A stretch of 64,000 nt of DNA from positions 21,961,168 through 22,025,167 of the forward strand of contig OZ316891.1 in the NCBI GenBank assembly GCA_973895155.1. The letters run 5' to 3'. Source of the stretch: Marsupella aquatica (taxonomy: Eukaryota > Plantae > Marchantiophyta). The notes under the pieces are model-generated. The model was not told the DNA's origin, ran no database searches, and was given only the letters and a program-made list of their open reading frames with translations. Below are positions 1-35,732 of the stretch, piece by piece. The translations under genes were made by a program, and so were the position numbers. How positions within the stretch are numbered: position 1 is the first letter of the stretch; every line of letters begins with the position of its first letter.

Positions 1-2739
1 TTGGATCATCCGTGTGGGTTTGGCGTGAGGATTCACCCACCCACCCCGAGCGCCGACCGTCTCAAATCGAGGTGCCATGTGCAGAAGTATTGCCGCCTCT
101 TCTGGGGTCATCATATTTCTTAGATCTTCATGTAATGACTCCTCGTCCGCGCCCTTTGCCTTTTCCTTTCCCTTGACCTTCTCAACCACGAAATCAGTAT
201 CCTTTTCACCATACACCCATTTTGGCTTCATCTGGTTGGGCTTGAACACTTCATCCCAGCTGACGTTCTCTTCGCGAGAAATTCCCGCAAAGATAACTTC
301 TTCTATTCCTCCCTTCCAACATGAGTCGTGAGGGTGAGGTTGATCATCTCGGTAATAACTCCCATACTCAATGTGAATAGTCAGAGTTTTTGAATGTCCT
401 AATTTACAAAGAGCGCTTAGGACATTCAGTACAAGGTAACCCGGATGGACAGTTATCATCACAACAATGGTGGGATTCCGTGGTAGCTCTACTATGTATT
501 GGAAGAGTACCAAAATCTCTGCTTCGGTCCACTCCTTCTGTTGAAGTCGGCTGAAATCAACAATTGCAAGAGGGCATGTTGGAGATTGTTCTTCCAACAA
601 CTCCGGATCGACTGTCTTCATTAGGTTGTTACTAAAAAATCTGACCCACGGTTGGGTCCGAGAACTTGTCCCCCCGCCAAACTTCTGACAGTAAATATCA
701 TCTAGACGCATCACCAATGTCATTGGCAATATCTCACTCTCCTTTGTATGATTAGACTTCAATAAATTTGTCAACCATACTTCACCAGCCGCTCTTCGGC
801 ACCTGTTCAACTCCGACTTGGCACCTAACAATGGGAGGACCTCAATTACTTTAACCCAATCAATATCTGCTGGGAAGTTTTTCGGATCCTTCTTGAAGTA
901 GTAATCTCCAATAAGAGACTTCAGTTTGATCAATATCTTCACCTCCTTTGCAAAGTCCTCCATTGCTGGAACATCTGACTTATTTGTCGGATCCTTCTTC
1001 AATAAAACCTGACCTGACTTCACCTTGTTCAAAATTCTGGTCAAATCTCTACTTGATATTTCACCATCAAAACAACGAAACATTGCGACCGTTATACCCT
1101 TTTCGGACCTTTTGTTTCCCTGTGTACCAGCTCCATGAGGAAGATGTCCATCAATCCACATCTGGCACACTAACCGCCAGAGCTCGAAAAGATCATTCTC
1201 GGCAAAGAGCAACCAATATACATTTTTCAAGTCTTTCCTCCCCATGGTCATCCTTGCCAATGCCAAATAATCCTATAGTCAAAATTAGGGGAAAATAAGT
1301 TATCTACAATCAATGAGATTTGACAACAAACTATCACTTGCTTGTTGGACAGAGACCATCTCCATCCAAGTCATAACTAAAAGTAAAAGGAAGAGAAATC
1401 TCTGGAATGGACGATGACACTCTTGGACAGAGATCATCTCCATCCAAGTCATAACCAAAAGTAAAAGGAAGAGAAATCTCTGGAATGGACGATGACACTC
1501 TTGGACAGAGATCATCTCCATCCAAGTCATAACCAAAAGTAGAAGGAAGAGAAATCTCTGGAATGGACGATCACACTCTTGGACAGAGACCATCTCCATC
1601 CAAGTCATAACCAAAAGTAGAAGGAAGAGAAATCTCTAGAATGGATGATCACACTCTTGGACAGAGACCATCTCCATCCAAGTCATAACCAGAAATATAT
1701 TGAACTAAAATCAATGTAACGGACGGTCACACTCTTGGACAGAGACCATCTCTGTCCAAACAAGAAAAGTGTTTCTCACCTGAAATTTTTTATTTTCTTG
1801 GGCGTTTGACTTGTTGTCCCCGTGCTTTGGCTTTCTTGGTCCTCTGCATTCAAGGAATTGTTTCCTTGCATGAACAATTGTATCTTTGAAGCACGATTGA
1901 AACACCATCGTCAAATTGATGGCATTTGATCTCATTGAGTGCTCAACCAATATAGCCGATGGTGTAAGGTCTGACAATAATCTAGACTTCCTGTATTTTA
2001 ACTTTTTTGCCAACACTGTGAGCTTGGCATCAGTTTTGGCCCATTCGAGAACCCACTTGGCCGCCCTAGCCGAATGTTGCCCACTGATGGCAAAGAAACC
2101 AATCTCGCCTTTCTTCACTCTTGCAAGAAAGTCTTTGCGGTCGTTCTCCGTGCTGTCAAAATGGAGCAACTTTCTAAGCTTCAGACTATAAGGAAGCAGG
2201 TCCGCGACGTGAGGTTCATGTCCGGGGTTTTTGACCATGGATTCGGCTATGTGCTTCACATGGGTACTACTGAGCATCCTGTAACATAATCTTGCAGGTG
2301 CAGGCACAATTTTCTCCACTGGAATAGAAAACAGTTCATTTATCCCAAAAGTATAGTACTGCTCTATTCTCTGGAGAACATCATTTCCTTCTAAGACCTT
2401 CTTCTCCTCAGGGGCATCAAGTTTGTCTCCCTCATCTTCTGGGAGCATCTGTACGTCCGCAGGGGTTGACCGCAAAAGAGACTTGTCAGTTTTCTGTTTC
2501 TTCGCTACTGGCTTCTTCTCGGGTTCCTTCGGCAATGTCTCAATTTTCTCGCGACCCTTCCTCTCTCTTAGTCTTCGCTTCCCTACCACTTGTTTGGTGC
2601 TTGTCCCAGCCGTTGTTCCTGCAGTCCCTGTTGTTGTCTCCTGAGATATTTTTCTAGGTTTGGGAACTTCTTTGGGAACTTCTTTGCTCGGGGGGTTCAC
2701 CTTATGAAATTGTTGTATACCATGTGCGAACGCCCCTAT
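1..2739 (-). CDS. ParB/Srx(DndB-like) domain + degenerate beta-class amino-DNA-methyltransferase-like fusion protein; 3' end runs off the window
   Basis: Exon ~2739/2700-1780 (RMLSSTHVKHIAESM...FFAISGQHSARAA...HSMRSN). Phase-0 intron 1779-1273 (CAG|GTGAGA...TATAG|GAT). Then a 424-codon exon 1272-1 with no stop (PLAIVDFSR, GGIEEVIFAG, WVNPHAKPTRMIQ), absent from the ORF track because it has no stop in the window. Start uncertain: the nearest ATG (2723) is 1 nt out of frame. Confidence 0.7.
1345..1759. repeat. 78-bp-period array with 6 copies of the palindromic motif, inside the intron of the ParB-MTase-like gene
   Basis: TTGGACAGAGA(C/T)CATCTC(CA/TG)TCCAA starts at 1345, 1423, 1501, 1579, 1657 and 1735. 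Confidence 0.95.
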
Positions 2740-2930
2740 TTAATCACTCTCTCAAAAAGGAATAGGAAGCTCAAAAAACCCATCAATCATTTATTGACAC
2801 GTGGCAAGCAATGAATCATGTGATGACAAGTGGCACTTTTTGAATTGTTACCCCCTTACTTACTTCCTCGCTACTTCTAAGTACTTCCCTAAAATGAATA
2901 AAACGCCCCTTACTTCGTTCGCACATGATG

Positions 2931-4442
2931 TCAACATTTGTGGAAGTGACCCCCCCAAGCTTCTTTGTTAACAACTACTGGAAGCTCGTTCACCACTACT
3001 GGTGCAACATTTGTAGGCTTGGGTAATGATTCTACCCACTTTTTTGCATTATCCATCGCAAACTCCTCTGCAAATGCAATTTGCTTGTCAAGGCAAACAC
3101 CTGATTCCGAAGATAGGAATCCTGCCTTGTCAAGCAAATTATTTAAAATCCATGTCACCGGAAATGTATAATTCCCTTGGTGTTTATGGATATTCAGCTT
3201 CACATATTGGAACCCATACATTATGTCAAGTGGAAGAATCCCCTTCACTCCAGCAATCACCTTTTGAGTTGAATACGACTTAGGGAAAAAGCCCATTGCC
3301 ATCACGCCAAGTTCTCCAGCACTAGACCACTCAACATTGAACTCTGAAGAATACGCCTTTGATGGTAGATGTAGCTTAACCCATCGTATCCTTTCATGGA
3401 GCTCAAGAATGATGGAAACAAACCCTCTTCCTTCAATTCCAATGAAGACTACAGGTCCGAGTACAAGAGTCTCTTGATCTTCTGTTCTGACCTTTATGCA
3501 CAAAATGGGATCCCATCTCTCTGACGTGCTAAGGAAATCAAAATCAACTCTAGAGAACTCAAGGCCCCAACAAAAATCTGGTTTTCTCTGCTCCAACAAG
3601 ACTCCCTCGGAGCAATCTGATTCTGAAATTGCTGGTTTCAATCCATTTAGATCGCTCCCTGCAATAGTCCCATCCATGCATATTAGTTTGGAAAATCATA
3701 ATTTGTAATCGACAAAGATGAGGTTCTCTCACAGTTTGGACAGAGATGATCCCTATCCAATTGGACAGGGATGATCTCTATCCTCTACTTGGATAGGGAT
3801 GATCTCTGTCCAATTCGTAACAAAGATAATCTTTGTTCGATCAAAGGATTCTGACAATCTTTATTAGGAATTGGACAGGGATCATCTCTATCCTCTACTT
3901 GGATAGGGATGATCTCTATCCTCTACTTGGATAGAGATGATCTATGTCCAATTCCTAATAAAGATCATCTTTGTTCGATCAGAGGATACTGACGATCTTT
4001 ATTAGGAATTGGACAGGGATCATCTCTATCCTCTACTTGGATAGGGATCATCTTTATCCAATTCCAAATAAAGATCCTCAGCATCCTCTGATAGAACAGT
4101 TTCGATCCTCTGGTTGGACATCCTCTATCGTCATTTTGGAAATAGATGATCCCTATCCAATTGGACAAGGATGATCTCTGTCCTCAGTTTGGACAGAGAT
4201 CATCTCTATCCAATTCCTAATAAATATCACTATCTTCTACTTGGACTCTACTTGGACAGGGATGATCTCTGTCCATTTGCACAAATAGTCAACTTGTTAC
4301 CGAGATACTTACTTGGATTGAGCAATTGGAAGGCTCTGGAATCCTCGAGGGCCGTGTCTACCACATCCTCAATGGAGGAGAGGTCTATCTCCTCTGTTGG
4401 CTCAACGACCAAAGACACATGAATAGGTCTAGATGGATCCAT
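2931..4442 (-). CDS. Two-exon gene of unknown function (~285 aa), transposon cargo
   Basis: Exon 1 4442-4313 (MDPSRPIHV...LLNP). Phase-1 intron 4312-3659 (A|GTAAGT...TTGCAG|GG). Exon 2 3658-2931 is in frame with the 248-aa ORF. The phases match exactly. Confidence 0.6.
3736..4276. repeat. Array of ~12 palindromic motif copies inside the intron of the unknown gene
   Basis: TTGGAYAGRGATSATCTCTRTCC in groups of 2-3 at 25-28-bp spacing, separated by ~57-bp self-complementary linkers (TTCCTAATAAAGATC...GATCTTTATTAGGAA). Confidence 0.9.
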
Positions 4443-5340
4443 CTTGTGACACGTGGTCGTATGGACACGTGGAGGATCACAGAGCGTTAGATCTAGGGCA
4501 ATTAACGTGGCGGCTAGGGCAGAAACTCTAGTGTGAAGGCGGAGGTGGAGTGGGGCCTAGGGAGACTGGAAGCGAATGAGGCGGAGGAGCGGAGGAGCGA
4601 AGGCGCAGGAGCGAAGGAGCGGAGGCGCAGGAGCAGAGGAGCGAAGAAGAGGAGGAGGGAAGAAGAATGAGGCCCAAGTGGGACCTCTTGCCTCCTTTAC
4701 CCCCCCCCACACCAAGGTGAGGCAAGGCCGACTCAACACGTGGGAGGCCGAGCTACAAACCCTAAACGCAATGCTGCGTAAATTGTGCCGCCCGACTTGG
4801 TTGTGTGGCGTGGGTGACCTAATCCACTCGACCCTAAACTCCGCCGCTGCTTAAGGCTGATCACGCATCGCCTTATCCGTAAGAGCGATCTTGAATGGTG
4901 ATACTTGGGCTGCTCCGGCTGGTCCTCATTTGGTATTTTTATGTCTAGATTTTCATTCAGTGTCTCAACCAGGTCCGTTCATTACGGAGCCCCATTGAGC
5001 CACTCTTGTTTTCTAGACAGAACATCTAGTTTTAATTTCTTCCACACCCCTGAAGCATTTAGTTTACCAGCTTACTGAGAACTACCCCTTCAACAAAGTA
5101 TTTTATTACTTGGTTTGACAACATAAACTAAGTGAGTTTTGTGTTCAAGAATCATTTCCATTACAGGTAACTTTCAACTTAATTATAGAATATTCCATTG
5201 GTATCAAATTTAGGAATTGTATATCTAAGTTACTTAAGGTTGGGGTATCCAGCCCAACTCACGATTGGGATCATCTCAATCGAACCTTTCTTTGGTCAAA
5301 CATTAAATTAGTGTGTAGAGGTTAATTGTCCGTACAAGGG

Positions 5341-6335
5341 TCTGTCCACCGTTTGGATAGGGATGATCTCTGTGCACCGTTTGGATGAGGATGATCCCTG
5401 TCCACCGTTTGGATGGGGATGATCTCTGTCCACCGTTTGGATGGGGATGATCCCTGTCCGGCTTTTGGATAGAGATGATCCCTGTCCACCATTTGGATAG
5501 AGATGATCCCTGTCCACCATTTGGATAGGGATGATCCCTGTCCGCCATTTGGATAGTGATGATCCCTGTCTACCATTTGGATAGGGATGATCCCTGTCCG
5601 CCATTTGGATAGAGATCATCCCTGTCCACCGTTTGGATAGCGATGATCCCTGTCCCCCGTTTGGATAGAGATGATCCCTGTCCACCATTTGGATGGGGAT
5701 GATCCCTGTCCGCCATTTGGATAGAGATCATCCCTGTCCACCGTTTGGATGGGGATGATCCTGTCCGGCTTTTGGATAGAGATGATCCCTGTCCACCATT
5801 TGGATGGGGATGATCCCTGTCCGCCATTGGATAGGGATGATCCCTGTCTGCCATTTGGATAGGGATGATCTTTGTCCGCCGTTTGAGGTATTTGCTTTAT
5901 GGGACCCCAATATGAAAGGTTTTACTTTCAGATAGGACCGCTGAGTGATCCTAAGTGATCCGGACCTTGAATCATCCATGTCTATTGTTTGGACAGTGAT
6001 AGACCCTATCCGCCATTTGGACAGGGATCAGCTGTGTCTGCCATTTGGACAATGACAGACCCTATCCACCGTTCTGATAGGGATCATCCCTGTCCGGATT
6101 TTGGATAGGGATGATCCCTGTCCACCATTTACAGGGATCATCTATGTCCATTGTTTGGACAGTGATAGAACCTATCTGTCGTCTAGACAAGGATCATCCC
6201 TACCGAACGTCTAAATAGGGATCAGGGATCAGGGATCTTAGGGCTAGATAAGGATTGTTTAGGGACCTATTATTTTGCTTGATGGGGATGATCCCTATTT
6301 GCGCACTGTCCTTGGATGGGGTTCACACCTATCTG
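5341..6335. repeat. 28-bp tandem array (~19 regular + ~10 degenerate copies) of the palindromic motif, upstream of or within a 5' intron of the transposase
   Basis: Unit CCRTTTGGATAGGGATGATCCCTGTCCR at 5349-5880, with degenerate copies at 5989-6335. Candidate donor CAG|GTAACT at 5167 and acceptor TGTGCAG at 6387. Confidence 0.93.
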
Positions 6336-6404
6336 CTTCCTAGTTGGGACCATTGTTAACTAATACCTTACATTTCAAATTGTGCAGGTGAACACGTTGT
6401 AGGA

Positions 6405-9400
6405 ATGACCGGAATATTTTTGAGAGGAGACAATGTGATATTGACAATTGGTGGTTACGATGTTGCAAGCGGGACAGTTCAAAAAATCAACCCGCAAGAT
6501 AGTGTTCAAAAGATATTGTTGAGAGAGAATCGAATGGGCGTTCTCATTGAGAAAGTTTTTGACCGAACCACAAAACTACCATTTCCAATGCCTTGGGCAG
6601 AAAACCTTTTTGATGCCATTGATTCTTGCATTATTTGGGATTTGTCTTGCGCATATCTATCAACGATAACAAATTCTCAAAAACGCATTAGTGTAGGTAG
6701 TTGTTCAAATCGACCGGAGAGTAATTTGGAAAAAAATCCAATTGTAGAGGAGGACTCATCGACCACTCTGAGGCAAGGGGATGAGGTTGAAATGTTCATC
6801 TTTGGGTGTTGTGTAGCCCTTGGAGTTGTTTTCAATACAAATCTAATGGAAAGATGTCACAACATTTTACTTGGTGAATCACGGATCAGTGTGAGGGTCA
6901 CTGATGTCATTCATGGGAGTAGGGTTTTACCTTACAAACACAGCGGGGCTGAAACAATTGACGAAGCAAAAGACTCATGGGTTCTCTGGGATGTGGCAGA
7001 TGTCCGAAGTAGAAAGAGTTTCTCAAAGAAGGATGCGGGCGATGATATCAACATAGAGCGGAGTTTTGTTGCGGAGTCTCCCTCAGCTGAAATTTCTAAA
7101 ACTAATTGTGACTATTTCCAACGGTCAAATTGGATGTCAGAGTTGGTCGAACTATACATCGGTTCAGATCGAACCAATAGGGTTGCCACGGGGACCATCA
7201 CTGTGCCTCAAGAAACGGCGGTGGTTGACGATGAAATTCTTGGTGAGGACCATGTAGGGATTGCTGTGAAAGATGTGGTGGAATCACAATACTTTCCCAA
7301 TTTCCATAGGGGAGTAATTACTTTGGTTCGGTGGCGGATTGATTCAACAAAACTACTTGCAAACGGGAAATTTTTGTCGGACATTTTGGTTGAAGGTTCA
7401 GAGAGGATGGAGAGGGTGGATAGGGATGATCTCTATCCAAATGTAAATGATAGGGGAATGCCGCGCACAAGGCCATACAATTTCAACAAGAGGACTCATG
7501 TAGATCCGATTGAAAAGAAGAGAAGGTTGTTGGAAACCAAAGCAGTTTCAAAAACAACGGAAGCTTCGATTGATGAAATTAAAAGAGAGAATTATTGCAA
7601 GCAGAAATGTTGTCTGACTATGCCAAGAGAAGACATAGAAGATATCCGGATAGAATTTCACGGGATGTCTAGCGAGTCAAAAACATCACACATTTTCAAC
7701 CTCTTCCACTACAGAGAAGATGATGTTCGTGATAAGGGGCACCATGTTCTCAAGGGTATGGTCGTATGTAGACATGCATTTGCAATCATCCATGGCTTTA
7801 GCCACACGAAATATTATGATTACAAAAGGAGATATGTGGAGGGTTGCAAAATTGGGTTCCATGGAAACACGGGCTCCATGAAAACAAGGTCAAATACCTT
7901 GCATGCACGAGCTCTATTGGAGGATTTTTTGACTCGAAATGCAGAGCCCATGCCTCATATACCTTATGCTGGGGCTCATGGGACACCCTCCATTGAGTAT
8001 CGTCTTCCAGCATGTTACAAGAAGTTGGAGATTTTGGAAGATGTGAGAACAAAGATGAAGGAAGAGGGGCTTCCTCCAGTTACAGAGAATACTCTGTACA
8101 AGATTTGGAGCAAATCATTCGCAAACTTCAGTTTCCATAAAGATGGTGCATTTGCCAAGTGTACTCTTTGTTGTGAATACAAAGATAGTTTGATGCGAGA
8201 AAGAAGGAACAAAGAGCGTGCTGAAATTGAAGAAAAACGAGCGCAACATCTTCGTGAGCAGATGTCACGTAGATATGTTTACTATGCTCATCGAGTGATG
8301 GCTAAGCAACATCCAAGGAAATATCTTTGCATCATTCACGACAAGATGGATCAAGCAAAGACATGGATTCCAAAAATGGTCAGTACTCCTAAATCGCTTT
8401 CGGGTCATGGGATGCCACTACCTATTGCTCTCACAGGGATGTTGACCCACGGAAGGGATCCAAGAGTCTATGCACACTTTAGTGTCACTGGCCTTTGGCC
8501 AGGAGATGCTGATTTCACGGTGACATCCTTGGCTAAGTGTCTTCGAGACCTTGAAGAGTACAATGGAGACAAGACAGGTGACATGTTGGATGGCCTTTAT
8601 TTGGAACCTCATAGACCTTTCTTTCAAGCCCTTCTTGACTTTGATGCATTTTTTAAGGGATATTTGGAACCAAAGAGTATTCCAATGAATAGGTATATTG
8701 GTTCTGAAGATGCAGCCGAGAGTCAGACGGAGACGGTCTCCACCCAACATGGTGAGGATCAAGGAGGGGACATGCATGGGGAACAAGGCAGTCCATCTTT
8801 CAAGCCCTTGCCAAGGCACCTAACACTACAAATGGATAACTCAGCAAAGGATAACAAAAACCAGACTGTCATGCATTTTGTAGTGAGCTTGTGAGTAGAG
8901 GAGTATTTGAAACTGTTCAAATGTCTTTTCTAATGGTTGGTCATACACACGAAGATGTTGATGCACTCTTTTCGAAGGTATCATATCAAGTTCAGCACAA
9001 GGAAGTTGCAACTCTCCTTGCTCTTATGGCAGAGGTTTGGGAATGTGAGAGCATTCATCCAGTTCCCAGATTGATACAAGAAGTTGCATCTTACAAAGAA
9101 TATCTTCAAACTTTCAAAGTTAAAGATATTCAAGGTCACTCAAAACCCGTATCATTTCTTTTCTCTATGAGAGATAATGTACCAATATTTCAGTATAAGT
9201 CCCATGTAAAGCAAGCTTGGGCTCCAGTTGGAGGAAGGTGCATTTGGGCAATAGATCTGACAAAAAATTCTCTTCTTTTACCTAGTGGAGAGCCCTTAGC
9301 TAAATTCATTGGAGAGATACACAAAAAATCTGAAGAGATTATCCCATTTCTTAACAAGTACCTTGATTTTTTGAGAAAGAGTTGCACTGATGAGACATCT

Positions 9401-11230
9401 ATAGCATATAAGGAAAGATTTCCTCTTGTGAAATATTGGGAGAGAATTGTGGAGTTGTTGACAAATGGGCTTGCACTAGAAGGGGAGGGAAGTACTCAAT
9501 TTCCCTTGAAAAATGGATTTTGGCCTAAGACTAACCACGGCACTGGTTACAAGATCAACCAACCGGAACAAAGTGGTCCTCCAAGTGAAGATGAGGAGAA
9601 TGCGGAGATGACGGCTCTTCAAAATGAGGTCTTGGAAGAGATGGAAGATCAAGCAGCACCATTTGTTGGATCTCGAGCTGAGAGAGAACAAGGACGGTGG
9701 ATTCCCCTACAGGATATTCGTGAAGGGAACTTTGTATTTCTTCGACCTGAGGATGACTGGGAGAATAAAAATGGTGGAGGTCATTTTTGGTTGGTGAGAG
9801 CTTTGGGTTCGGTGGACCCTAAGCATGAAGTCCCAACTACATCTCCAACAAACCCTCCTATGCCTCAACAATATGCTCCAATGTTTCCAGTCGAATGGTG
9901 GAGGCCTAAACACTCTAAACTTGATGTGACTGAAAGTGCACGGTATCTAAACTGCTTCATGTCCACTAAGACATGGGCCCTGGGCCCTTAGCTTAACTAA
10001 TATGGGACCCCCCGTGCGAACAACTCAAGGGGTTTTTAAATCTTTTTTTTGAATAATAGTTATAATCGCTTATAATGTAACAACCCTTTGTTTTATTGGG
10101 TTCCATGTTATAATGAACCAAGGTGATCTAAAAAATAGGGTTCGAGTAGTTGTATGTAAGGGTAAAGCATATAGGGCCGCCACACGTCAATACTCATTCA
10201 TCCACATGTCATTACATCCTTGGTTTGGGGTGTGCAAACACATTTGAATTTTTGGGGGATAGGGGAAATTTTGCCTTTAGGGGGTCTCGTGTACCATTTA
10301 TGGATGACCAAAATGGTCTGCCGTCGATCTCTTTGATGCTCTATATCAAACGGTGTAGGGGTATATATGGCCTTGTAGGGCCCCCAAAGAAGGAGGAGGT
10401 CAAGTAGACACCGTTGTTCAATGCGTGTTGCGTCAGATGGGGATTCTATGATGCCACAAGTGATAGAGAGAGAGTCTCAATCCAGAGTCACTTATGTACC
10501 TCGGTGTATATTTATCACTTCTAGTGATCAAAGAATTGGTTTAAATGTAATAAGTTTTCCAATGCTTTAGACTCAAAGGATAACTTTCCTCTAAATGATG
10601 ATGAATATGCTCAACAAACTATGGGACAAACTTAAGTGCAATGTGGACTTACGGTTTTCATAGATGACAGCGTAGGATGTTTACAACTTAATTTGGATAC
10701 TTGTATGAGTTTGTTTGACTCTTAAATGCCTTGACTCCTACCTTCTTGCGAGGAAGTGTGTACATAAAGAATATGTTGTTCCTATTTTTGCTTTTGATAA
10801 TGTGAAATGTTTATTCCAATCTGTTTGACTTAGAATCTCTTTGATAGAATTTTTATAACACCTGAAGAGCATATTTAATGTCATTTTGATGAAGATTATA
10901 ATAGCCTAAAGGGCTTTCTTAATGACCCAAAAGTAATTTATTAATACTAATAAGAGCTTTTTAAAAGGGCAAAAAATAGTACTGAAGGGGTTTGGAAGGG
11001 AGGGGCGTTCACAGGCCGGTTCCATTAATATACACGGAGTAAGGGCCCAGGGGACATGGGAACGAGATCCAGGGTTTGGTGAGAACGCTCAACATTGGCA
11101 ATATGCAAATTCTGCAATGTATGGTTTTAAATCTGGCATGAAAGAAGAAAACATGGCGGGCAGAGGTTTGAAGATTCCTCGAAATGTTCTACAAACTGTC
11201 CAAAGTTATCTCCAAAGGATGGACAAGTAG
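6405..11230 (+). pseudogene. Sola-like/DUF7869-type DDD transposase, disrupted by a 1-nt frameshift (~8874) and a MITE insertion (9978-11052)
   Basis: Motifs AKCTLC..H, IIHDKMDQ, LQMDNSAKDNKN and FLMVGHTHEDVD. Adding one G at 8874 gives ...NQTVMAFCSELVSRGVF. Removing the insertion restores ...MSTKTWERDPGFGENAQHW...YLQRMDK* with the stop at 11228-11230. Confidence 0.8.
9978..11052. mobile_element. Non-autonomous TIR element (CCCTG family), 1075 bp
   Basis: TIR CCCTGGGCCCTTA / TAAGGGCCCAGGG. Perfect 8-bp TSD GACATGGG at 9970-9977 and 11053-11060. Excision restores the host ORF. Confidence 0.93.
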
Positions 11231-11519
11231 ACTTAGTTGTTACTTGCGAAGCTATAATAATTAAATTAATTTAGATAGTTACTTACCTAGTTTTTATGTA
11301 AATAGTCGACACTCATTCAAACATACTAACTTACGTACTAGTTATTTACTATTCTAATAGTTTTAATGTGAGACCATGTCATTGAGTGTTAGTTATACTA
11401 TCTCCTCATTTTCTAAACTTTTGATCATTATGAATATGAATGTTTGCTTTTTTGCATAATTAAAAATATTTTTCTATTCATTCCTTTCTTTTAAATGATT
11501 ATAATAAGATTTGGTAGGA

Positions 11520-11845
11520 AAATATACACTTTTTAGGCCAAATGTACACTTTGTTGCACTCAAAGTTACACTTTCTAGACCAACTACACTTAAATGTACA
11601 CTTTTTAAGCCAAATGTATGTTTCTTTCACTCAAATGTACACTTTCTAGGCCAAATGTACTAAAATGTACACTTTTAGAGCCAAATATACCTATTTTGAT
11701 GTTCAAATATACACTTTTTATTGCCCAAATGTACACTCTTTAGGCCAATTGTACACTTTTCTATCCCCAAATGTACACTTTTCATTGGCCAAATGTACAC
11801 TTTTCCTCGCCCAAAAGTACACTTTTCATTGCCCAAATGTACATA
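11520..11845. repeat. Tandem array of a ~20-bp unit CCAAATGTACACTTTT (~15 copies), probable subterminal repeat
   Basis: Repeated AAATGTACACTTT core with palindromic TGTACA, directly after the transposase 3' region. Confidence 0.85.
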
Positions 11846-12677
11846 AATCAAATAATAATACACTTTTAATGAATAGGCTGATTTTACCCAACCTGTTCTG
11901 TCCCAGCTGCAGGAGTTGGTCGCCTAGTAAGGGTGGGCCTGCCCTCTCCCACTCTGGCTCCCGCTGTTCGGAATCCCCGTGTAAATCTCTTAACTTCCAA
12001 GTATTTCCAGTCCGTTCCAATCAGTTCCGTTGCCTCCTAATCGTTGCTTTAAAGGTAAGGCAGGAGCAAAACACACTCATTAGGGCGTCTCAAATATGAG
12101 ATTTTGTGGGCACGGTCAGCAGCCGTAACATGTAAGTTACGGGTTAAGAGTGAGAAAGTTATGGACTGCCATTTTTGGCAGTCGATAACTTTGTTACGGA
12201 CGGCGACGGTAACCCGACACCGTAGAGCACAGGTCCGTAACGGCTTGACGGTCCCGTCTGAAGAACAGGGTCGGGCTGAACTGGGAATCTGCAGGGATGG
12301 GAGAGCATTTTCTGGGAGACTCACGGATTGCAGAGTGACGAGCATTGCACGAGGATGACAAGAATTGCAGACGACGATGAGGCAACGACGAGGGCGACGA
12401 GGCGACGACGAGCATTGCACGAGAGGACATCACACCTTTGTGCGTGGACAAGACGAGGCTGAACGTGCTAGGAGGTCCAACAAGGGGACGACAACTTTGC
12501 AGCTTATTGTCACAAACCTCCACTCAGGCAGGAACCAGAGCAGCTTGGTCCCATTTCCGCAATGCGTTGCCACATAGGAATCCACTTGAATTAAGGGCAA
12601 GGTCTTGGGTCTGTCTCAACTCCCTCGTCGAGAGCTAACCCCTAATTTCTGCCAGGTGTGTTGTTTTTCCAGGAGCC

Positions 12678-13217
12678 ATGGATGAATGGACGTCACTTGC
12701 ATTTGTGGAGGAGAATAGGATTGCTGGAAATTCTCTCACTTTTTCGCCAGCACTTGTTTTCCCAGGAAATTTTGTTGCCACGAATCCCTTCCCTAGGAAA
12801 TTTACATATTCTTCATGCCGTGCATGTTTGAAGTCCGTAGAGTTTGGTCAAAAATGTCACCATACTGTGCTTGCACAAATATCATTTCGATTTCAACTAA
12901 TTTTGTATGATGCATTCCATGGTGGGGTGTGTCCTGTGCGTGCCCAGATGTGGGACACTGCTTCTACCTTTCTAGGTTGCTCTCCATTTGAGTTTAGTGC
13001 ATACTCTAAAGCAGAGCAGCTATACCGAGTCCATTCATTATCCCAGATAGCCCCAAAGCTCAAAGTCACCCTCCATGTCAGTGAATTTGAGCTAAAAATC
13101 GTGCATCTTGTCTTCATTGATGCTAGGCCAAGCATTCCAATTCCCTCTTCAGTGAGAGGGCTTGTCACTCCTGAACGCCCAATTCATGTACCACAGGGGA
13201 GTTCAAGTGCAGCATAG
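12678..13217 (+). CDS. RPA1 C-terminal-like OB-fold/Zn-ribbon protein (cargo of the Harbinger element)
   Basis: 179-aa ORF with YSSCRACLKSV...KCHH...FRFQLILYDA...AQMWDTASTFLGCSPFEF, resembling the RPA70 DBD-C pattern (Y.AC..C.KKV...RY.l...D....FD..a..llG.sa.e). Confidence 0.55.
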   Translation: MDEWTSLAFVEENRIAGNSLTFSPALVFPGNFVATNPFPRKFTYSSCRACLKSVEFGQKCHHTVLAQISFRFQLILYDAFHGGVCPVRAQMWDTASTFLGCSPFEFSAYSKAEQLYRVHSLSQIAPKLKVTLHVSEFELKIVHLVFIDARPSIPIPSSVRGLVTPERPIHVPQGSSSAA

Positions 13218-13449
13218 GGTAGCACTCCTGTGAAGAACAAGAGCGCTAAGAAACTTCTGACCGAACTAATCCAGTCTTTGAGAGACACAGACCTTTCAGA
13301 TTAGGGTAGGATCCTAGGTTTAGGCCTTGGCAATGACTGTTATGCAATGTCCTGCCCGATTGTGGTCAATATTTTTGAGTAAATGTTCAAATGTGTTCAA
13401 TAAAATTTACATGCGTTGCTTCCGTGTATGACTTAAGCTGCAGGTCAAC

Positions 13450-14932
13450 ATGCCTCGAATTTCAGACCGTCAACACTCACTATGTTTTGTGCGGAGGACT
13501 CTTGAATTCAACATTGCTTTAGAATCTTCTGGTAGTGAGCAGGACTCCGATGACTCCCTATCATCGTTGTCCTCTGGTTTTGAGATGGACATGACTATCT
13601 CAGACAGTGATACTGATGGAGCTTTCGAGGACTCAGATTCGGACTATGACTTTGACTTGTTTGAGCTAGAGGGTCATCCTAGTGAATTGCTAGCTCGAGT
13701 TGTATTTTGTTATGCACCACACTCGATACTTTGTTGGGCGTGATGTGGTGCAGAAGTCCAAGGATTTTGTCCGTAATTACTTTGATGGGCTTGGCCTTGT
13801 ATTCAGACAGATGGTGGCATGGAGAAGAGTACCTTCTTTTACTTGGTGGAATTAGTTGAGAACGATCCTATCTTTGTGAACAAGTCATGGCATGATCAAG
13901 CACCAATTGAATGGCAATTGGCTGTCACTTTAGATCATTTTGGCCAGAACGGAAATGGGGCATGTCTAAATCACATGATACCAACATGGGGGATCAGCAA
14001 TGGATCATTGGTGAACTTCACCAAGCAATGTTTGGTTGCACTAGAGGCAGCATTGTGCCAATACCTACAATGGCCAAAAGCTGTTGAACGTCATGAAATC
14101 CAGCAGGAGTTTGCAAAATTGGGGTTTCCAGACTGTATTGGTTTGATTGATGGATCTACTTTGCCTCTTGCACAGCGTCCAGCAATTGCTGGTGAATGTT
14201 ATTTTGATAGGAAATCAAGATATTCAATTAATGCTCAGGTGGTATGTGATCATCGAAGGAAAATCTTGTTCCTATTCACTGGTAAGGCTTGAAGTTGTTG
14301 CTGCATTTGTGAATGATTGTATTTGAAGCTTTTCATACTGTCATACATTCCTAATTGAATGTGCTTCTTTTGGTGTTGTCTCGTATCCAGGGATGCCTGG
14401 AACGTGCTCTGATTTGGTGTGCTTGAAGAAGTCACCCTTGTGGTTGTGGGTGAACAATGGAACCGGATTTACAAATGGGCAGTACTTGTTAGGAGATTCT
14501 GGTTATGTAGCCCTCCCGCACATGGCTGCTGCATACAAGAGAGCAGACACCAGTGTACACAAAGAGGACTTCAACTCTTGTGTTGCAAAGTGTAGGGTCA
14601 CCAATGAGCACTGCATTGGTGTGCTCAAATCCCGTTGGTACTCTTTGAGGGAGCTGCGAACTCAATTGAACTTGAAGAAGGACAATGTGTTTATGATCCG
14701 CTTAATTGGGGTATGTGCAAAGCTACACAACTTTGTTCAAGCACAACATGATGAATGGACCGACTTAGACTCCCCTATGGAGATAGATCGGGAGATTCCA
14801 GGGCTGGGCGAAGATCATCCATTGCATGGGCCCCAATTGGCCGGTGTAATGCTGCAAGCTAGAGTGATGAGCCATGCTTTGGCTTTCCATAGGGCACCAG
14901 GTGGAGTCCTCCATAGAGACGTTAATAGATGA
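13450..14932 (+). pseudogene. Harbinger-type DDE transposase (frameshifted N-terminus)
   Basis: GFPDCIGLIDGS, YFDRKSRYSINAQVVCD, intron 14282-14390 (G|GTAAGG...CAG|GG), MPGTCSD, YLLGDSGY, RVTNEHCIGVLKSRW. Frame breaks around 13720-13818. Confidence 0.88.
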
Positions 14933-16726
14933 TACCTTAAATAGATTCAGAATTACATCAGGCTTTACAAAATGTACACTCAGGCTGCTAGTCAGTGAGT
15001 TCAGTGCAGTTTTCCAGCTTGTAATAATTATATGAAACTCACCTAAGGGTTTTTCCGTGTACAAATGACCCATGCATTGAATGTGAGTACAATATGATTA
15101 TTTGGATGCCATACAGTGATCTGTTCATTGTGTTTGCCTAAAATGGACTTCAGAACAATAAATTTACAACTGACTTTGAACCATTCGAACCATTCTTTAT
15201 CCTGACACGACATTTCCGAACTCAAAAGGTCTCCAGGAAAAAAAGAGCAGGGTATCGCTTTACTCAAAATTTCTCAAATTATAGGGAGCTTACAAAATTG
15301 ACACATAGTGTCATAGTTCCAATAGATTATGCTCTCCTACTATCGAGAGTAGTCGACTACTGATCGAGGATCGACTACTAAGGATCGAGTACCGAGTATG
15401 AACGTCTTAGTCTTGACTATTGAGGATCGACTACTGAGGTTTGGCTACCATCGAGCTCTCCTCTCAGAAATGCCAACATGCATATTTGCCCTTACAAACT
15501 TGCTACGTACTGGCCCGAGCTCCACTATCGACTACTTTAGGGTGAGGGATACTTCCATCTATACTCATTGTATAGCATCCCATCCCCAGAGCTACCGTCG
15601 CTATCATGTTGACCTTCCCGAGCTTCCTTCTCTCGCTCCAGTTCCATGTCCCGAGCACGAGTTGCTCTCTTCCTCTTACAAACCCATTTTCGTCGGGATG
15701 TGAACTTGAGGGGTTGTGGTGCGGGTGAGCTTGTAATCTCCTTGGCATCATCAATCTTGATACCAATGTTTGATCCATGTTTGGGAGACTCTGTAGAGTC
15801 AGACGAAAGTTCGATCACCTCCTTCCCACCATTGCAGACTACATGTACCTGCTTAGGAATGCTGGCAACACCAGCTTCTGTGCGAGCTTCAGCACCCTGT
15901 GTACTTTTCGGAGGCATTGCTCCTACACAACTCGAACACAATCCTGCACAATTGGAGCAAGCAGGATGTCAATGCGGACCATGAACGCAACATTGCATTG
16001 ATAAGGACCACAAGTAAACCTTCACCGTGGAAGTTAGCACAAGCAACGCATTGTCTAGAAAAGCGAAACCTGGCTAGAAATGTCGATAGAATCCCGTTGG
16101 AAGCAAAGCAATGAGAGCACCGTAGTTCACAGTCCCACTTCAAAATTTTGAGCTCCCCTGTCAAATGAAGAGTGTGGCCGAGAGTGGAGGTAACATAAGC
16201 GCCACCTCCTTGCATCCAATTCTCATGATGAGCCGAGCATTAATGAAACCTATCTCATGGGAACAAAGTACCACGTAAAGGGCTCACTCATGTGAGCTCA
16301 AAGTGTCACATGAAAAAATGTGCTACACGTAAACTGAGGTCAGTTGTCTATACTGCTCCATGATTACAATGACGTGACTTGCCCCTTATGGATATTGACA
16401 TATACCGGTGAGCAATAAATCAAATGAGGTGAGTAAGCCAAAAAATTCCAAAGACGCTTAATGTGCATTCAAATATTTTCCAAAGCATGCCTTTGACTCA
16501 TTCAGAACTGACTAATGGAAGCTTAAACCATTGAATTCACACCATGAAACCACTCAATCATACCCATTCAAAACAACTGAATTTTTATTGGTGAAATTTT
16601 CAGCAAGGTACTGAACGTACTTTATACAAAAATTTCCCCCAAGTACCAAAGGAGAAAAGTAATACTCTATTAATAATATGAATACTACTCATGAAAATTA
16701 GAAGTTTCACCATGTCTACTACTAGC

Positions 16727-18330
16727 TCACTGGGCCGGAGGCTGATCAACATCATCAATGACCTTCATCAAGCCTAGAATCTGCTCTTCCAATTTATCTG
16801 AGCAAAACAGCTGTAGTAACAATTGAGTCTTATGTTCAGCTCTAATCATTGACATTTGATGTTCTCTCTCCACCACAGCTCTTTTCACTAATTCTGCGTC
16901 AACTCGAAGGCTATGTCTCCTAGCAATACGCTCCCTCCGTTCTGCTTCTACAGCTGCTTCCATCCGAGCTTCTCGCCTATCTCTCAATTCTGCCTCCTTC
17001 CAGTTTCTTTTGGACTCAACCATTGATCTCATGTAATTAGCTTTTTGACCCAACTTCTCAGAATAGACAGCAGCAGAGTGTGAAGGAGCAGCATTGGTAG
17101 GACTTGGGCAAGCATCAGGTGCAGGAAAATTGCGTGAAGCAGCAGCAGGATGTCCATCATGGACAGATGGAGCAGGAATACTATGAGGAGGCAGTTCTGG
17201 GCCATCAGCTGTAGTCCATGCAAAGCTATCTGTTGTGGCTTGACTAAGGTCACCCTCATAGTTTTCATTCACAAGATCAGTGTAGGTCAGATATTCATTC
17301 CAGTTCAGCTCGGTTGCCTCCACCTCTCCATCGCTCTCTGCAAACCATAATTAGAAATTAGAAATTGGTTTAAACAAAAGAACTACAAAATATGTCCACT
17401 CAGAAGCAATGTACATAACCAACAACAGCTCATACCACTTAGAATTTCCGTTGCAGTGTATTGAGCCTGACTTTCTTCATCAAGGTTCACTGGGTGGCCA
17501 TCTGGTACTGCCTCGGTTGGTTGCACAGAAACATCAATACAATCAGGGCCCATTCCAAAAGATCCAATTGCAGCAGGTGCTACGTTTGGTCGATCACCAT
17601 ACAAGGCATGCATCCTCTAAAAATGGGGGCACGCCTTGTTCAACTTGTCCTCAATGGACATTCCTGCAGCAATCTCAGCTTCGTTGAGCCCTACCCCACT
17701 GTCTGTCTTCAATGCAAGCGCCTCTTTGAATCGCTTAACATATCTCTCGTATCTCTTCCCAAGATTATCCCCTATAGTAATCGCCATAGGAAACCCGTGT
17801 GCTTGCAGAACTACAAGCATCTGCTTGAAAGTAGTCTTCTTGGTAGGGCATTTCCCGTTGATCCTGGTACGATTAATGCTTCCATGGCTGTGCAAAATTG
17901 TTAGGATTTTCCAGCCAATCAAGGATCTTGCTATAATCTTCAACCCTCAATCAAACCTTGTCTCCAGGGAGCAGATGCGTGCTCCTTGCTAGAGCTGGGG
18001 TAGATTGAACTGGACACGAGGATTGAAGGGCCTTTGATTTGCTCGCACATTTGCCATCTCGCGATTGACAGGAACAACAACTTTGATTGAAACAGGAATT
18101 TCAGCAGCTTCCTGCACAGAGCACCTAGCATCCTCTCCAGCACCCTCAGACAAAGCGTCGACAATGGGCCCAGAAATGATCGATGGGGAAACTTTGATTG
18201 AGACCAAAATTTCAGCAGCTTGCTGCACAAAGCGCCCAACTCCCTGAGACAAAGTTGCGAGAATTGGCCCGGAAACAATCCCTCCTAGAGCAATCGGCCC
18301 GATCTGTGGCGGACACTCCCCCATTTTTCT
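16727..18330 (-). pseudogene. Harbinger companion (Myb/SANT-like DNA-binding) gene, fragmented
   Basis: Fragments WLENPNNF, LGKRYERYVKRFKEAL..TDSGVGLNEAE..SIEDKLNKACPHF*RMHALYGDRPNVAP and a coiled-coil C-terminus (16727-17323). It is convergent to the transposase, as is usual for the second Harbinger gene. Stops and frameshifts are present. Confidence 0.7.
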
Positions 18331-20488
18331 CGAAACCAATGACGGTGTGTTGAAGAATCGGGGGGAACGAAGATTCAAAAAACTTCCCAGCCGAGCTTGA
18401 AATCGCAAAACTACACTACATTTTGGAACTTCAGTCGTAGTTTCTCATATAATTTGAAAACGTGTAATTTGGGACCCGGGAGACAATAAAGCAACAGTCA
18501 CACTCGGCGGAAGATTCGGGCCAAACAACGAATATTGAGCAGGGTGTTACGTCCATTTGGACGGCCCGTTATGACTTCCCGCACAGTTACCGTCAGTCAC
18601 AAAATTTACCCCCCAAGCCATAAACGCACTGTAGACACATCCGGTAATGACTATTACGGAATACAGTACCTGCCTGTGTGGGGAAGGATAACTCTCATAT
18701 TTGAGACGCCCTATTAACTCATGTTTTTCCCAAAGAAAATGTGAGTTAAGTACAGTACTCATATTTTCACTGGGGGTTTCACCAGAGGAAACGGGAGGGA
18801 GTTGATAGTGACAGCACGCAGACCTTCCATGTTTTGTTTGATGTATCTTTGTATAGGGCAGATGAAAACAAACATGGAGTATTCTTTGGTTTTCTCGAGG
18901 CAAAAAAAAACAAACAAACATGGAGTAGCTTGTTAGAACCGCATCGATCTTCCTTCTCCATAGTCAGAGTTTTCTGGAACGTGGTCAATCACGGGTGAGT
19001 CAACCATTATTTTTCAACTGAATTCAGGTGAGCTAACATTTGACCTTGGCTTCAACTAATACATGTTTGGAAGAGGCTCAAACTGTCGGTTCAATCACCT
19101 TAAGTCACAAGAGTTAGGACCAAGCTAGACAACTTCTCCAGGCTAAGCACTTTAATTGGGCAAAATGGGGTGGGGGAGACTTTTCAATGAATTTTTTGAT
19201 AATTACAATTCACGGTGTGCACTGGGGTATGAACTCTAACCTGATGGTACATCTATAAATTATGTAAATACTTATCCTCTTTGGGTCTTCATGATGTTGT
19301 TTTTGTGCTATTGGAGTACATTAGTATCCTTGATGTACCAAATGAGTTTCTTAGTCATAATGTTTGGGCCATGCCAACAGTTGCGATTTTCTTAGGTTTT
19401 AGGATGTCCAACACTTCAGGCCTTGCCTGCTATGGAGGGCTTCATATAGTGAGACCCATGAGAGGTCAAATGCACATAAACTTGCAACCTCAACTTTATT
19501 CTCCCTCCTTGCCCACCCAATCTCCCACCCATTTCCTTTCTCTTTCATCCCTGGCCAGATCTGAGCCCAGATTTAAACTTATTGTCTTTTATCTTTTTCT
19601 TCAATTTGATTCAAAAGACCCTAATTTTCTATTTTCAGCTTTTAATTACATTGTCACTAAAGATGTTTAAATTTATAATACTGCCACGGAGCTTTCTGTA
19701 TTTACAAAACTGCCGCGGTTTTGTATATAGCTCCCCTGGATACTGGTGAACTTGTCATTCATATAAAAAATCTTGGCATTTTTATAAATACAAAAAAGAC
19801 AGTGGCAGTAGTATTGTCAATTAATTAGAACATCTTTAGTGGCAAAGTATTTAGAAGTTGTTTCTATTTTTACAGTTAGTATTCTTTTCAAACCAATAAA
19901 TTGATCTTATACTTCATCACACGTGATGTACAGGGTGTGTGAACTATGATTTTTTTGTGGAAGTCAAGCGGAAGTGAGACTCTTAAGATAGAGTTATGGG
20001 TGGGAAGCAATGGAAGCCGTTCAATGGAAACTTAAGCTGCCTCTTTGCACCAGAGCATTGAATTTGCTAATCGGTTCCAATCCTATCACCCTCTTAATTA
20101 CCAAGCTGCATCCTTGTGCCCTCCAGACAAGCCTCCAGATCTTTGGGAGTTTCACTTCCATAGAATCGACACATCACGGGCAACAAAGAATACAATAATT
20201 TTACTGGTTTTAAGGGAAGATTTAGAAATTCTTGTAGAAGAACTGTATGGTCTTTACGTTAGTTAGTTTTACTCAGTAGTTTTAAGAAAAGAGTTAAAAA
20301 TTCTTGTGGAAGAACTAAGTTATGGTCTTTTAAATCCAGTTTGGAATCTTGTAAGAACATTAGGGTACTTTTAAATAAATCAAAAGTTTAGAATATTCCA
20401 TGAATATTCTAACTTTATAGGGTTCAAAAATTAAAAACAAATCTTACATTTTAGGGGGGTGCAGGGCTTAAAAACATCATAGGTGATG

Positions 20489-24900: not shown

Positions 24901-25013
24901 GACGCTCAATGAATAGCGCCTTAATTACTAATTCTCTGCTTGTACAACAAACGAGTTGATCTGCAGGTTCGCAAATTGTTTGGTTCTGATTCGTTTCTTG
25001 TTGTTGTTCTCAG

Positions 25014-26017
25014 AGGTGAATTCGAATGATACAGTTCCATGGGGAGTGTACGTGCTCGGCGAGCTTGTGAAAACACTAAACACCTTGACGCGACGGAGCG
25101 ATGGCACGATCAACAGAAAGCTTGCCGACCTCATTGAGTTCAAGGTCCCCGCTTCGGAGAAGCCAAAAAACGGCGTCTCAAGTAAAGACGTCGTCATCGA
25201 CGACGTGACAAACGTGTGGGTGCGAATCTACTTGCCCAGCGAGGAGTCGAATAAGAGGCGTCTACCAGTGCTTGTCTACTATCATGGAGGTGGCTTCGGA
25301 GTCCTTTGCGCCAACGAGGCAAACATCGACAACCTGTGCAGGACGATGGCAAAAACCTTCAACATGGTCGTCGTTTCTGTCAATTATCGGAGAGCACCGG
25401 AGCATCGATTTCCCACAGCGTACCACGATTCGTTCCAGGCGCTGGAGTGGCTCCAGTCCACTGCATCTCGTGCACACCTCCCTCCTACAGCAGACATTGC
25501 GCAGTGCTTCTTGGCTGGAGAGAGCGCGGGCGCCAACATTGCGCATTTCACGGCTTGCCGCGCTGCAGAAAACGAGAGGGAATTGATCCCACTGCGAATC
25601 CGTGGCGTGGTTATGCTGCAGCCCTTCTTTGGATCCGAGCGGCGCACGGCGGCTGAAAACGCTCTCGCCAATGTGCCTCTGATTTCCACTGATGCCACGG
25701 ACTGGCACTGGAAAGCTTTTCTGCCCGAAGGAGCGGACAGAGATCATCCAGCTTGCAACGTCTTCGGCCCTAATGCTCGTGACATAGCAGAGCTCCCCCT
25801 TCCACCTATTTTCCTGGTGACGGGCACTCTGGACCTGCTGATCGACCATCATCTCAATTACGCGTCTCGCATGCTGGAGATGGGCAAGTCCATCAAAGTG
25901 GAAAACTACGTTGGTGGTGTTCATGGGTTTTATTTCTTTGCGCCTGTTGGCACGAAGATATCTTTGGCGTGCCTCGCCGATGTCAAGAATTTCATCCAAT
26001 TGAATTCAAGATCATGA
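25014..26017 (+). CDS. Carboxylesterase (CXE, HSL/GID1-like alpha/beta hydrolase); main exon, start probably in an upstream exon
   Basis: RRSDGTINR, YYHGGGF, VSVNYRRAPEHRFP, GESAG, DWHWKAFLPEGADRDHPACN, DLL, VHGF (Ser-Asp-His triad intact). Acceptor TTCTCAG at 25013. Confidence 0.92.
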
Positions 26018-34251: not shown

Positions 34252-35732
34252 ATGTGTAAAAACCTGAAGGAGAAGGGGAAGCGAATGGTCAAGGACGAGG
34301 AGGAAATTGATGAGGCGGCGGAGCCAATGAAAGGTAAGAAGAAGCGAAAGAGAAAAGAGGAGATGGAGGCTGAGGCACTGCCGCTGGCAGTGCGCACATC
34401 AGTGCAGACGTTGAAGAGAGCCCTGTATATTGGAGCACATGTCAGTGCAGCTGGAGGTAGGTTCTTTCTTTCATAGATCATCAAGTACATTCCGATTCCT
34501 CCCTTTCTTCCCATGCATATGGAATCTGCTAGACTCTTGAACGGCACAATGAAGTTCAATGCTGGATAATTTGTTAGTTGATTTTCTCGACCCTAAACCC
34601 TAGACCTCCACTCCCTCATCCTTTCTCAGTACTTGTGTCTGACACAAACTGAAATCTATTGACGTGAACAGGAGTCCATAATTCAATCAACAATTCTGTT
34701 CATATTGGTGGAAACGCGTTCGCCTTGTTTGTCAAGTCACAAAAGAAGTGGATAAGCCCTCCACTCGCTGAGGAGGCTCGTGATCAATTCCTCGCTCTTA
34801 GCAAGAAGCACAGCTACGATTGCTCGAAGCATATTGTACCTCATGGCTCTTACTTGGTGAATCTCGCACAGAAGGACCCTGATAAGGCCGAGCAAGCGTA
34901 CAACTGCTTCTTGGACGATTTACAACGCTGCGAGGCTCTTGGAATAAACCTTTACAACTTTCATCCTGGTAACACTGGGCCACATAGGCGAGAGGAAGCA
35001 ATAGGTCGTATAGCAGCGAACCTCAACAGAGCTCATAAGGCCACCAAAAGCGTCGTCACATTGCTTGAGAACATGGCGGGAGGTGGCAACTTGATAGGAT
35101 CTACTTTTGAGGATCTTCGGCATATTATCGCTCTTGTCGATGACAAGTCCAGAGTCGGGGTATGCATCGATACATGTCATTCCTTCGCTGCAGGTTATGA
35201 TCTAAGGACTCCGGAAGCGTTCGAGAAAACCATCGACAGTTTTTCGGAAATAGTAGGAATGAAATACCTCAAAGCGCTACACATAAACGACAGCAAAGCG
35301 CCACTGTCGTCGCATCGAGATCTTCATGCCAATATCGGGACTGGATTCTTAGGCTTGCGCGCTTTCCACAATGTTGTCAATTTCGAGCCTTTTCAGCATT
35401 TACCAATGGTTCTCGAAACTCCCGTACAAAAGAAAGGCGAAAACGGGAAAGTAGTGGACGATACGGGGGTGTGGGCGGCTGAAATCAAGTTACTTGAAAG
35501 CCTGATTGGTGCGGATACTGAGAGTGAGGATTTCAAAAGTGAAGAGCAACGGCTACAGGATTTGGGCGCCGAGGAAAGGAAGAAATTCCAGCAGCAGGTA
35601 GATAAAAAGGTGCAGAAGACAATTGATGCCATATTCAAAAGGGCCAGTCCTAAGAAACATAAGAAGAAGGCGCAGGACGAACCCCGGTCGGATGTAGAGT
35701 CCGATGGAGAGCGTTCAGAATTTGCCCAGTGA
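34252..35732 (+). CDS. APN1: AP endonuclease family 2 (endonuclease IV / Apn1), ascomycete-like, ~421 aa
   Basis: Exon 34252-34456 (...LYIGAHVSAAG), intron 34457-34671, exon 34672-35732 (GVHNS...GNAFALF, HGSYLVNL, YNFHPG, LLENMAG, CIDTCHSFAAGYD, LHINDSK, DLHANIGTG, LETP). The canonical EndoIV metal-binding motifs appear intact. Confidence 0.95.

Follow-up and report, generated by a model that had tools for sequence, protein, structure and literature searches.

In a 64,000-bp stretch of the genome of the liverwort Marsupella aquatica (assembly GCA_973895155.1, contig OZ316891.1, positions 21,961,168 to 22,025,167 of the forward strand; the window in the following), positions 1-11230 hold two divergent genes of a DNA transposon: the plus strand carries a DUF7869 transposase-type gene, the minus strand a large accessory gene. 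One 25-bp palindrome forms arrays in predicted introns of both. Judged by structural models of the accessory protein, these palindromes are on balance probably its binding sites and would serve a self-protection of the element against silencing similar to that by VANC. The element thereby supplies a candidate protein together with a sharply defined 25-bp site that is present in 38 copies and apparently spared by mutation, and since the lineage is related to the tractable model Marchantia, the idea of ParB proteins acting on transposons becomes directly testable. Should it hold, a bacterial DNA-addressing module would have been redeployed against plant silencing, and a long, specific pair of site and protein would be available for epigenome targeting.

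The motif, a quasi-palindrome of the pattern TTGGAYAGRGATSATCYCTRTCCAA, was found 38 times at up to three mismatches, with 0.00 matches expected from 100 shuffles; since the pattern was derived from these very copies, the count documents clustering and not an independent discovery. All but one (37/38) lie inside predicted introns, with six in 1273-1779 (array 1), 12 in 3659-4312 (array 2) and 19 in 5167-6387 (array 3), and the last one stands in the transposase frame, as the original prediction had noticed. The rest of the 64-kb window holds no further motif at this mismatch limit. GATC is contained in 34 of the 38 motifs, and a 3-base deletion at 3922 shortens the variable end of one motif among the variants listed against four sequencing runs (40 of 1276 rows, excluded from the comparison of motif and spacer below).

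The three arrays had been described as unrelated in geometry, which applies to array 1 but not to the other two. Array 1 is distinct: its motifs follow a 78-bp period from 1345 to 1759 (Tandem Repeats Finder, TRF), and the 53-bp spacer gave no decayed-motif signal in a profile scan, so that its origin from decayed motifs was dismissed. Array 3 has a 28-bp period, and decayed copies accompany its intact motifs up to 6336 (TRF, profile scan). Array 2 forms long fold-backs, with four decayed copies (3816, 3954, 3982, 4064) in its long linkers; these score -2.5 to 5.3, within the background range, and were counted by register alone, and as their 27-28-bp register is like that of array 3, both arrays appear related in geometry. 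A weaker second palindrome lies in the transposase frame at 8723-8747 (profile score 16.2; the best beyond position 12000 is 7.2), in a stretch of the transposase that looks poorly conserved.

Outside the window, a metagenome scan returned two loci from 142 candidates, L001 and L002, with the full motif in neither, and motif as well as transposase are absent from the viral contigs scanned. L002, a distant, decayed relative (39% identity), carries four copies of the outer half-site TTGGACA, with 0.27 expected; this count was reached in 0/200 shuffles but was noticed after the fact. Two of the half-sites (L002:283-300) make up a palindrome of 18 bp whose centre is shorter, and the others lie at 96-102 and 1101-1107. 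They may point to a similar site in a different family; L001 has no excess of half-sites.

To array 1 we applied a comparison of motif and spacer, in which contigs of the four runs were aligned to 1300-1800 at 80% likeness and variants with a share of at least 10% were taken from the full list. The array itself accounts for 26 of the 29 variant positions in this region, and not one of these 26 common variants falls into a motif. Folded onto the 78-bp unit, 17/53 spacer and 0/25 motif positions are variable (P=5e-4, with variants that are inherited and non-independent and with the first ten spacer bases invariant as well). When the unit-to-unit differences of the window itself are added to both classes, the tally becomes 3/25 versus 23/53 (Fisher p=0.009). 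Copies of array 1 also vary in unit number, and contig joints reveal some that have fewer units or other spacers beside the motif. The fixed asymmetries of the motif persist among the units, which supports a binding site, since repair from arm to arm would erase them. The data support selection on the motif, claimed originally for all arrays, in array 1, where the accompanying expectation that other copies keep the motif while their spacers diverge was borne out.

According to the original prediction each array lies in an intron of a different element gene. The placement in predicted introns stands, but arrays 1 and 2 occupy, as deduced from reading frames and homologues, two introns of one gene, so that two genes and not three are concerned. 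For the ParB-like part of the accessory protein 84 homologues were collected and 54 of them aligned; the 14 with a named organism all belong to two liverworts, Calypogeia fissa and Riccia sorocarpa (a minority of the 84 was looked up by name). In 8/84 the regions matching 3629-3018 and 2571-1777 share one frame, and once 266 bp (2690-2955) are removed, 1005 codons can be read without a stop through both introns, starting at 4442 and reaching the edge of the window. These two observations argue for a single accessory gene and exclude three separate element genes. Among seven insertion boundaries tried, only the two that span 266 bp keep the frame open. The inserted 266 bp have no evident target duplication, and among the contigs listed three match only 2690-2903 and then diverge, so that the insertion has further copies in the genome. 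A clean intron at this place was rejected, as the strong donor lies after a stop and in-frame splicing would have to use weak donors.

Good support for the intron originally predicted around array 1 (1779-1273, phase 0) comes from homologues that join exactly at this junction. In the Calypogeia protein P0012, residues 1-153 match 2238-1780 and residues 154-308 match 1272-808, with the switch exactly at the junction, and in the Calypogeia protein P0092 residues 1-43 and 44-455 lie on either side of it; both are database gene models. Anchoring succeeded for 40 of the 84 homologues, 38 of which extend to the end of the exon; 30 of these 38 (31 by script count, one of them a chance match in P0012) end the exon with aromatic-X-Val and run into a stop at a median of 9 residues, while the same donor signature occurred in 18/345 control windows. 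Val is encoded by GTN and corresponds to a phase-0 donor that is read through. In L001 a donor likewise occupies this place, followed by an intron of ~128 nt without array; the intron therefore predates array 1. The intron predicted around array 2 was also recovered, in phase 1 with GT..AG ends and joining frames. It lies upstream of the homology of the accessory gene, which begins at 3629 or later; the predicted first exon 4313-4442 has no match among the 84 homologues, and the N-terminal domain (2956-3658) gave no Pfam match and no usable Atlas match. For array 3 the GT..AG ends at 5167 and 6387 could be confirmed, but no ATG within 4560-5166 joins the transposase frame, so this candidate intron would belong to the 5'-untranslated region (5'-UTR).

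The predicted accessory protein exceeds 1000 residues and comprises, in this order, an N-terminal domain of unassigned fold, a basic linker, a ParB fold, a helical region, and a methyltransferase fold. The 221-residue ParB-like domain was modelled with a predicted local distance difference test score (pLDDT) of 93.9. In Foldseek searches Noc, ParB, PadC, sulfiredoxin, and KorB rank first, headed by Noc in complex with its site (E 4e-3, prob 1.00, template modelling (TM) score 0.32). VIA returned 14 chains at Z ≥2, 13 of which we take, by their titles and folds, to be members of the ParB/Srx superfamily; the best Z is 7.4 (KorB, PadC; root-mean-square deviation (rmsd) 2.8, 93 aligned), followed by Pnob8 ParB with Z 7.2. 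These modest yet consistent scores point to a ParB/Srx fold in the modelled protein. Arginines 55 and 151 and Asn173 are nearly invariant in the alignment. Sequence-based searches contributed little: a word-based search among longer proteins returned nothing for the ParB-like part, Pfam found only DndB in 2/54 aligned members (E 0.04) and no VANC-type family in the accessory exons up to E 1, Atlas had no usable match for the last exon (1-1272), and PDB sequence searches and PHROGs were uninformative.

The last exon in the window is 42% identical to P0092 along its length, and the C-terminal fold was assigned on a model of this homologue (mean pLDDT 55.9, ordered parts 70-95), which also includes a confident helical region after the ParB domain. 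Its matches to beta-class amino-methyltransferases (Foldseek E 5e-6) include CcrM and M.MboIIA, with Z 13.5, rmsd 4.3, and 209 aligned residues for CcrM in VIA, and one weak match to a phage methyltransferase (E 3e-3). Pfam N6_N4_Mtase was found in residues 448-500 of P0092, mostly past the window edge, with E 6.5e-5, which is below the curated cut-off. Fold and motif order of the P0092 model are those of a beta-class N6-adenine/N4-cytosine methyltransferase, which the accessory protein would share. The consensus of the catalytic motif IV is [DNS]PP[YF]. At the expected site, whose position was estimated from model and alignment ranges, the window, P0092, and P0090 all read DFSR and four others DFSQ, DFAR, DLTA or DLIA, so that the catalytic motif has apparently been replaced. 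A motif I resembling the binding motif for S-adenosylmethionine (DFFSGG/DLFSGG) is present in P0092 and P0081; the corresponding site lies past the left edge of the window.

We propose that a dimer of the accessory protein would bind both half-sites of the palindrome, and that the bound protein could coat the element, mark it as self and counter host silencing, as for VANC. The use of introns would be explained by their tolerance of expanding and contracting arrays, which leave the reading frames intact there. A protein that coats and shields DNA appears more likely than one that slides as a cytidine triphosphate (CTP) clamp or deposits methyl groups, since the ParB arginine and, apparently, also the catalytic motif of the methyltransferase are replaced. 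The motifs had previously been regarded as cis-acting loading sites. In favor of this, the gene that hosts arrays 1 and 2 encodes a candidate ParB-fold binder, while loading as a CTP clamp is weakened by the altered GxxR motif. We consider it rather doubtful that the element has a parS/ParB system of its own, in which the accessory protein would load on the intronic palindromes, spread over the element by means of a nucleotide switch that was rebuilt with the canonical arginine missing, and use its methyltransferase fold to write N4-methylcytosine or N6-methyladenine as a self mark or to cap cytosines against 5-methylcytosine of the host. If it were true, land plants would possess a second, independently evolved sequence-specific system against silencing.

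Several observations weigh against the palindromes as binding sites of the accessory protein. The ParB-fold scores are modest, with no Foldseek E <0.001 and all VIA Z <8. Box II GxxR reads G-Q-H-S, with Ser in place of Arg in 51/54 members and Arg in none, and exchange of this arginine for alanine in the ParB folds tested abolishes nucleotide binding (PMC12704722). No helix-turn-helix was identified in the helical region, which was barely covered, the search rows being residues 246-521 of P0092. The short intron of L001 indicates that this site can do without an array. The comparison of motif and spacer covers one array of three, and its least favorable tally, in which the motif class alone receives the unit differences, yields p=0.09. 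Contigs fitting two places pile up on the motifs, so that motif variants need more support to reach the 10% share. Finally, the mismatches in array 1 (10/10) and array 3 (29/36) are mostly G.U pairs on the sense strand.

The latter bias would be expected if the motifs act as RNA hairpins in intron transcripts, as a source of small RNAs or in splicing tuning. The introns indeed fold strongly (z -18.75 for 3659-4312 and -8.21), and 5/5 single motifs folded stabler on the sense strand, one of them by just 0.3 kcal/mol. Any palindrome folds, however, array 2 is free of a sense bias (8 vs 11), the units are non-independent, and the bias is partly explained by the G-rich sense strands of both genes (G/C 1.2-1.5). 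A stem would moreover tolerate compensatory changes, yet one sequence is kept across the arrays, and no Rfam match was found. We judge RNA hairpins improbable, even somewhat more so than a neutral minisatellite, which we already hold to be unlikely. Such a minisatellite would have one origin, would have spread between introns by slippage or conversion, and would have survived where coding was unbroken. The common 27-28-bp register of arrays 2 and 3 with their decayed units, the different unit numbers among copies, and the array-free intron of L001 fit this explanation, and purifying selection on exons suffices for the intronic placement. It does not account for the sparing of the motif next to 17/53 variable spacer positions, for the recurrence of the same motif within the unlike 78-bp unit of array 1 and as an intact copy inside the transposase frame, or for a ParB fold encoded by the host gene of the arrays.

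The motif could also be recognized by other proteins. Binding by the transposase, to internal enhancer or autoregulatory sites, is suggested by 19 motifs directly preceding the transposase and one inside it, and according to the abstract of a preprint a Mutator transposase activates in a sequence-specific manner. The separate 22-bp array after the transposase is nevertheless the natural candidate for its end sequence, and palindromic sites suit a dimer of the ParB type; this possibility ranks below the hairpins. We give the least credit to a host transcription factor or chromatin protein recruited to the divergent promoter region. Although arrays 2 and 3, both in first introns, flank this probable promoter, the motif occurs nowhere else in the window, and 25 bp are long for the site of a plant transcription factor.

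ParB accessory genes with inverted-repeat arrays have already been published for transposons of red and brown algae. In Ectocarpus, Sola1-1_Ec32 carries a gene with ParB and N4/N6 methyltransferase domains opposite its transposase, and the gene product has been proposed to act on its own element by binding and modification (PMC12477816). The M. aquatica gene has the same position, a similar size (>1005 versus ~1100 aa) and both domains, but belongs to a liverwort and not to a brown alga, and the accessible text mentions neither repeat arrays nor a loss of the catalytic motif for Ectocarpus. The accessory protein PAG3 of a Bostrychia Plavaka element also has a ParB-like domain, and tandem inverted-repeat arrays were proposed as its binding sites (10.1101/2025.02.11.637652). 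There, however, the ParB-like domain is fused to a 2-oxoglutarate (2OG) oxygenase, the methylase is a separate gene, the arrays are adjacent to the gene instead of within introns of both genes, and the transposase is of the Plavaka and not the DUF7869 type. Judged by the models, and with the algal proteins compared by description, the M. aquatica element combines like these a ParB and a DNA-modifying fold with inverted-repeat arrays in a DNA transposon.

In Arabidopsis, VANC binds family-specific tandem motifs in introns of VANDAL elements and was shown to cause hypomethylation (PMC5735166). The tandem arrays of a family-specific motif in introns or non-coding parts, dynamic among copies, are a shared feature, whereas the VANC motif is a 9-bp, non-palindromic sequence in one orientation and our element has no VANC or Mutator family match. 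With bacterial ParB-parS, Noc-NBS, KorB, and VirB-virS it shares the ParB fold and multi-copy palindromic sites (PMC12704722), and VirB uses this fold to counter silencing by H-NS (PMC10676424). Unlike these proteins, the accessory protein lacks the GxxR arginine, contains large insertions in the fold and a methyltransferase-like fusion, is encoded by a eukaryotic transposon, and has no ParA partner seen here. Fusions of ParB-helix-turn-helix and methyltransferase were reported from chlorophytes and chytrids (PMC4738411), and the available part of a further preprint (10.64898/2026.08.24.746577) mentions neither ParB nor liverworts. The literature searched contained no report from a land plant; Iyer et al. 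2011 and the supplements of the algal studies, which were outside this search, may hold plant members or intronic arrays.

The features of the element are compiled in Table 1. Contigs from four sequencing runs of two studies cover 30/30 bins of 1-11500 in many variant pieces, which suggests a multi-copy family; one of the runs may be the source of the window itself, and none of the contigs listed spans the whole element. The transposase contains D, D, and E-bearing blocks that were read off the sequence, as expected for a cut-and-paste DNA transposon, with DUF7869 taken by us as a transposase marker. Pfam found no family of Mutator-like elements (MULE), and PMC4455052 and PMC5751038, as far as available, yielded no usable superfamily signature (Sola or EnSpm/CMC were considered). 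This copy is probably defective, since the transposase has a one-base frameshift at 8872, where other copies among the contigs listed possess an extra base, and is interrupted by a 1083-bp insert at 9970-11052 that other copies skip (contigs of two of the four runs). The insert is a miniature element in the 3' end of the transposase; its inverted ends are short, and it is flanked by a target duplication of 8 bp. The array after the transposase, whose 22-bp unit has a TGTACA core, is probably subterminal in the element, and the probable divergent promoter or leader region separates the transposase from the accessory gene.

Table 1. Positions of genes, introns, and repeats of the M. aquatica element in the window
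Feature	Position	Strand	Remarks
Accessory gene, predicted first coding exon	4313..4442	-	ATG at 4442; frame joins the next exon
Predicted phase-1 intron with array 2	3659..4312	-	654 nt, GT..AG, matching frame
Accessory gene, N-terminal domain of unassigned fold	2956..3658	-	In the frame of the ParB-like domain in 8/84 homologues
266-bp insertion	2690..2955	.	G6..C6 inverted ends; breaks the accessory gene in this copy
Accessory gene, putative ParB/Noc/Srx-fold domain	1780..2689 (domain ~2442-1780)	-	Follows the basic linker; GQHS replaces GxxR
Phase-0 intron with array 1	1273..1779	-	507 nt, GT..AG, frames join; homologues switch at the junction
Accessory gene, last exon in the window (runs off the edge)	1..1272	-	Helical region, then predicted beta-class amino-methyltransferase fold
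Divergent promoter/leader region, probable	4443..5166	.	Inferred; sign reversal of the GC skew
Candidate 5'-UTR intron of the transposase with array 3	5167..6387	+	GT..AG splice signals only
DUF7869 DDE-type transposase	6388..11230	+	Pfam DUF7869 E 3e-11 and 1e-25
Single intact motif in the transposase frame	7416..7440	+	1 mismatch; translated VDRDDLYPN
Unrelated 22-bp repeat array after the transposase	11520..11870	.	TRF and repeat finder

Downstream of the element, a Harbinger/PIF-type element with perfect 20-bp inverted ends extends over 12081-18713 and contains broken DDE_Tnp_4 frames at 13786-14929 and an opposite-strand frame at 16727-17350. An intronless frame at 24932-26017, presumably carboxylesterase/GID1-like, shows no CG depletion (observed/expected 1.04), compared to 0.25-0.72 within the element. 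Another intronless frame of 354 aa (34668-35732) reads, in our estimation, like a fungal-type Apn1/endonuclease IV repair enzyme, and horizontal transfer or contamination is a possible origin. At 53705-55357 a 425-bp tandem repeat is present in 3 copies, with coiled-coil-like frames on the minus strand.

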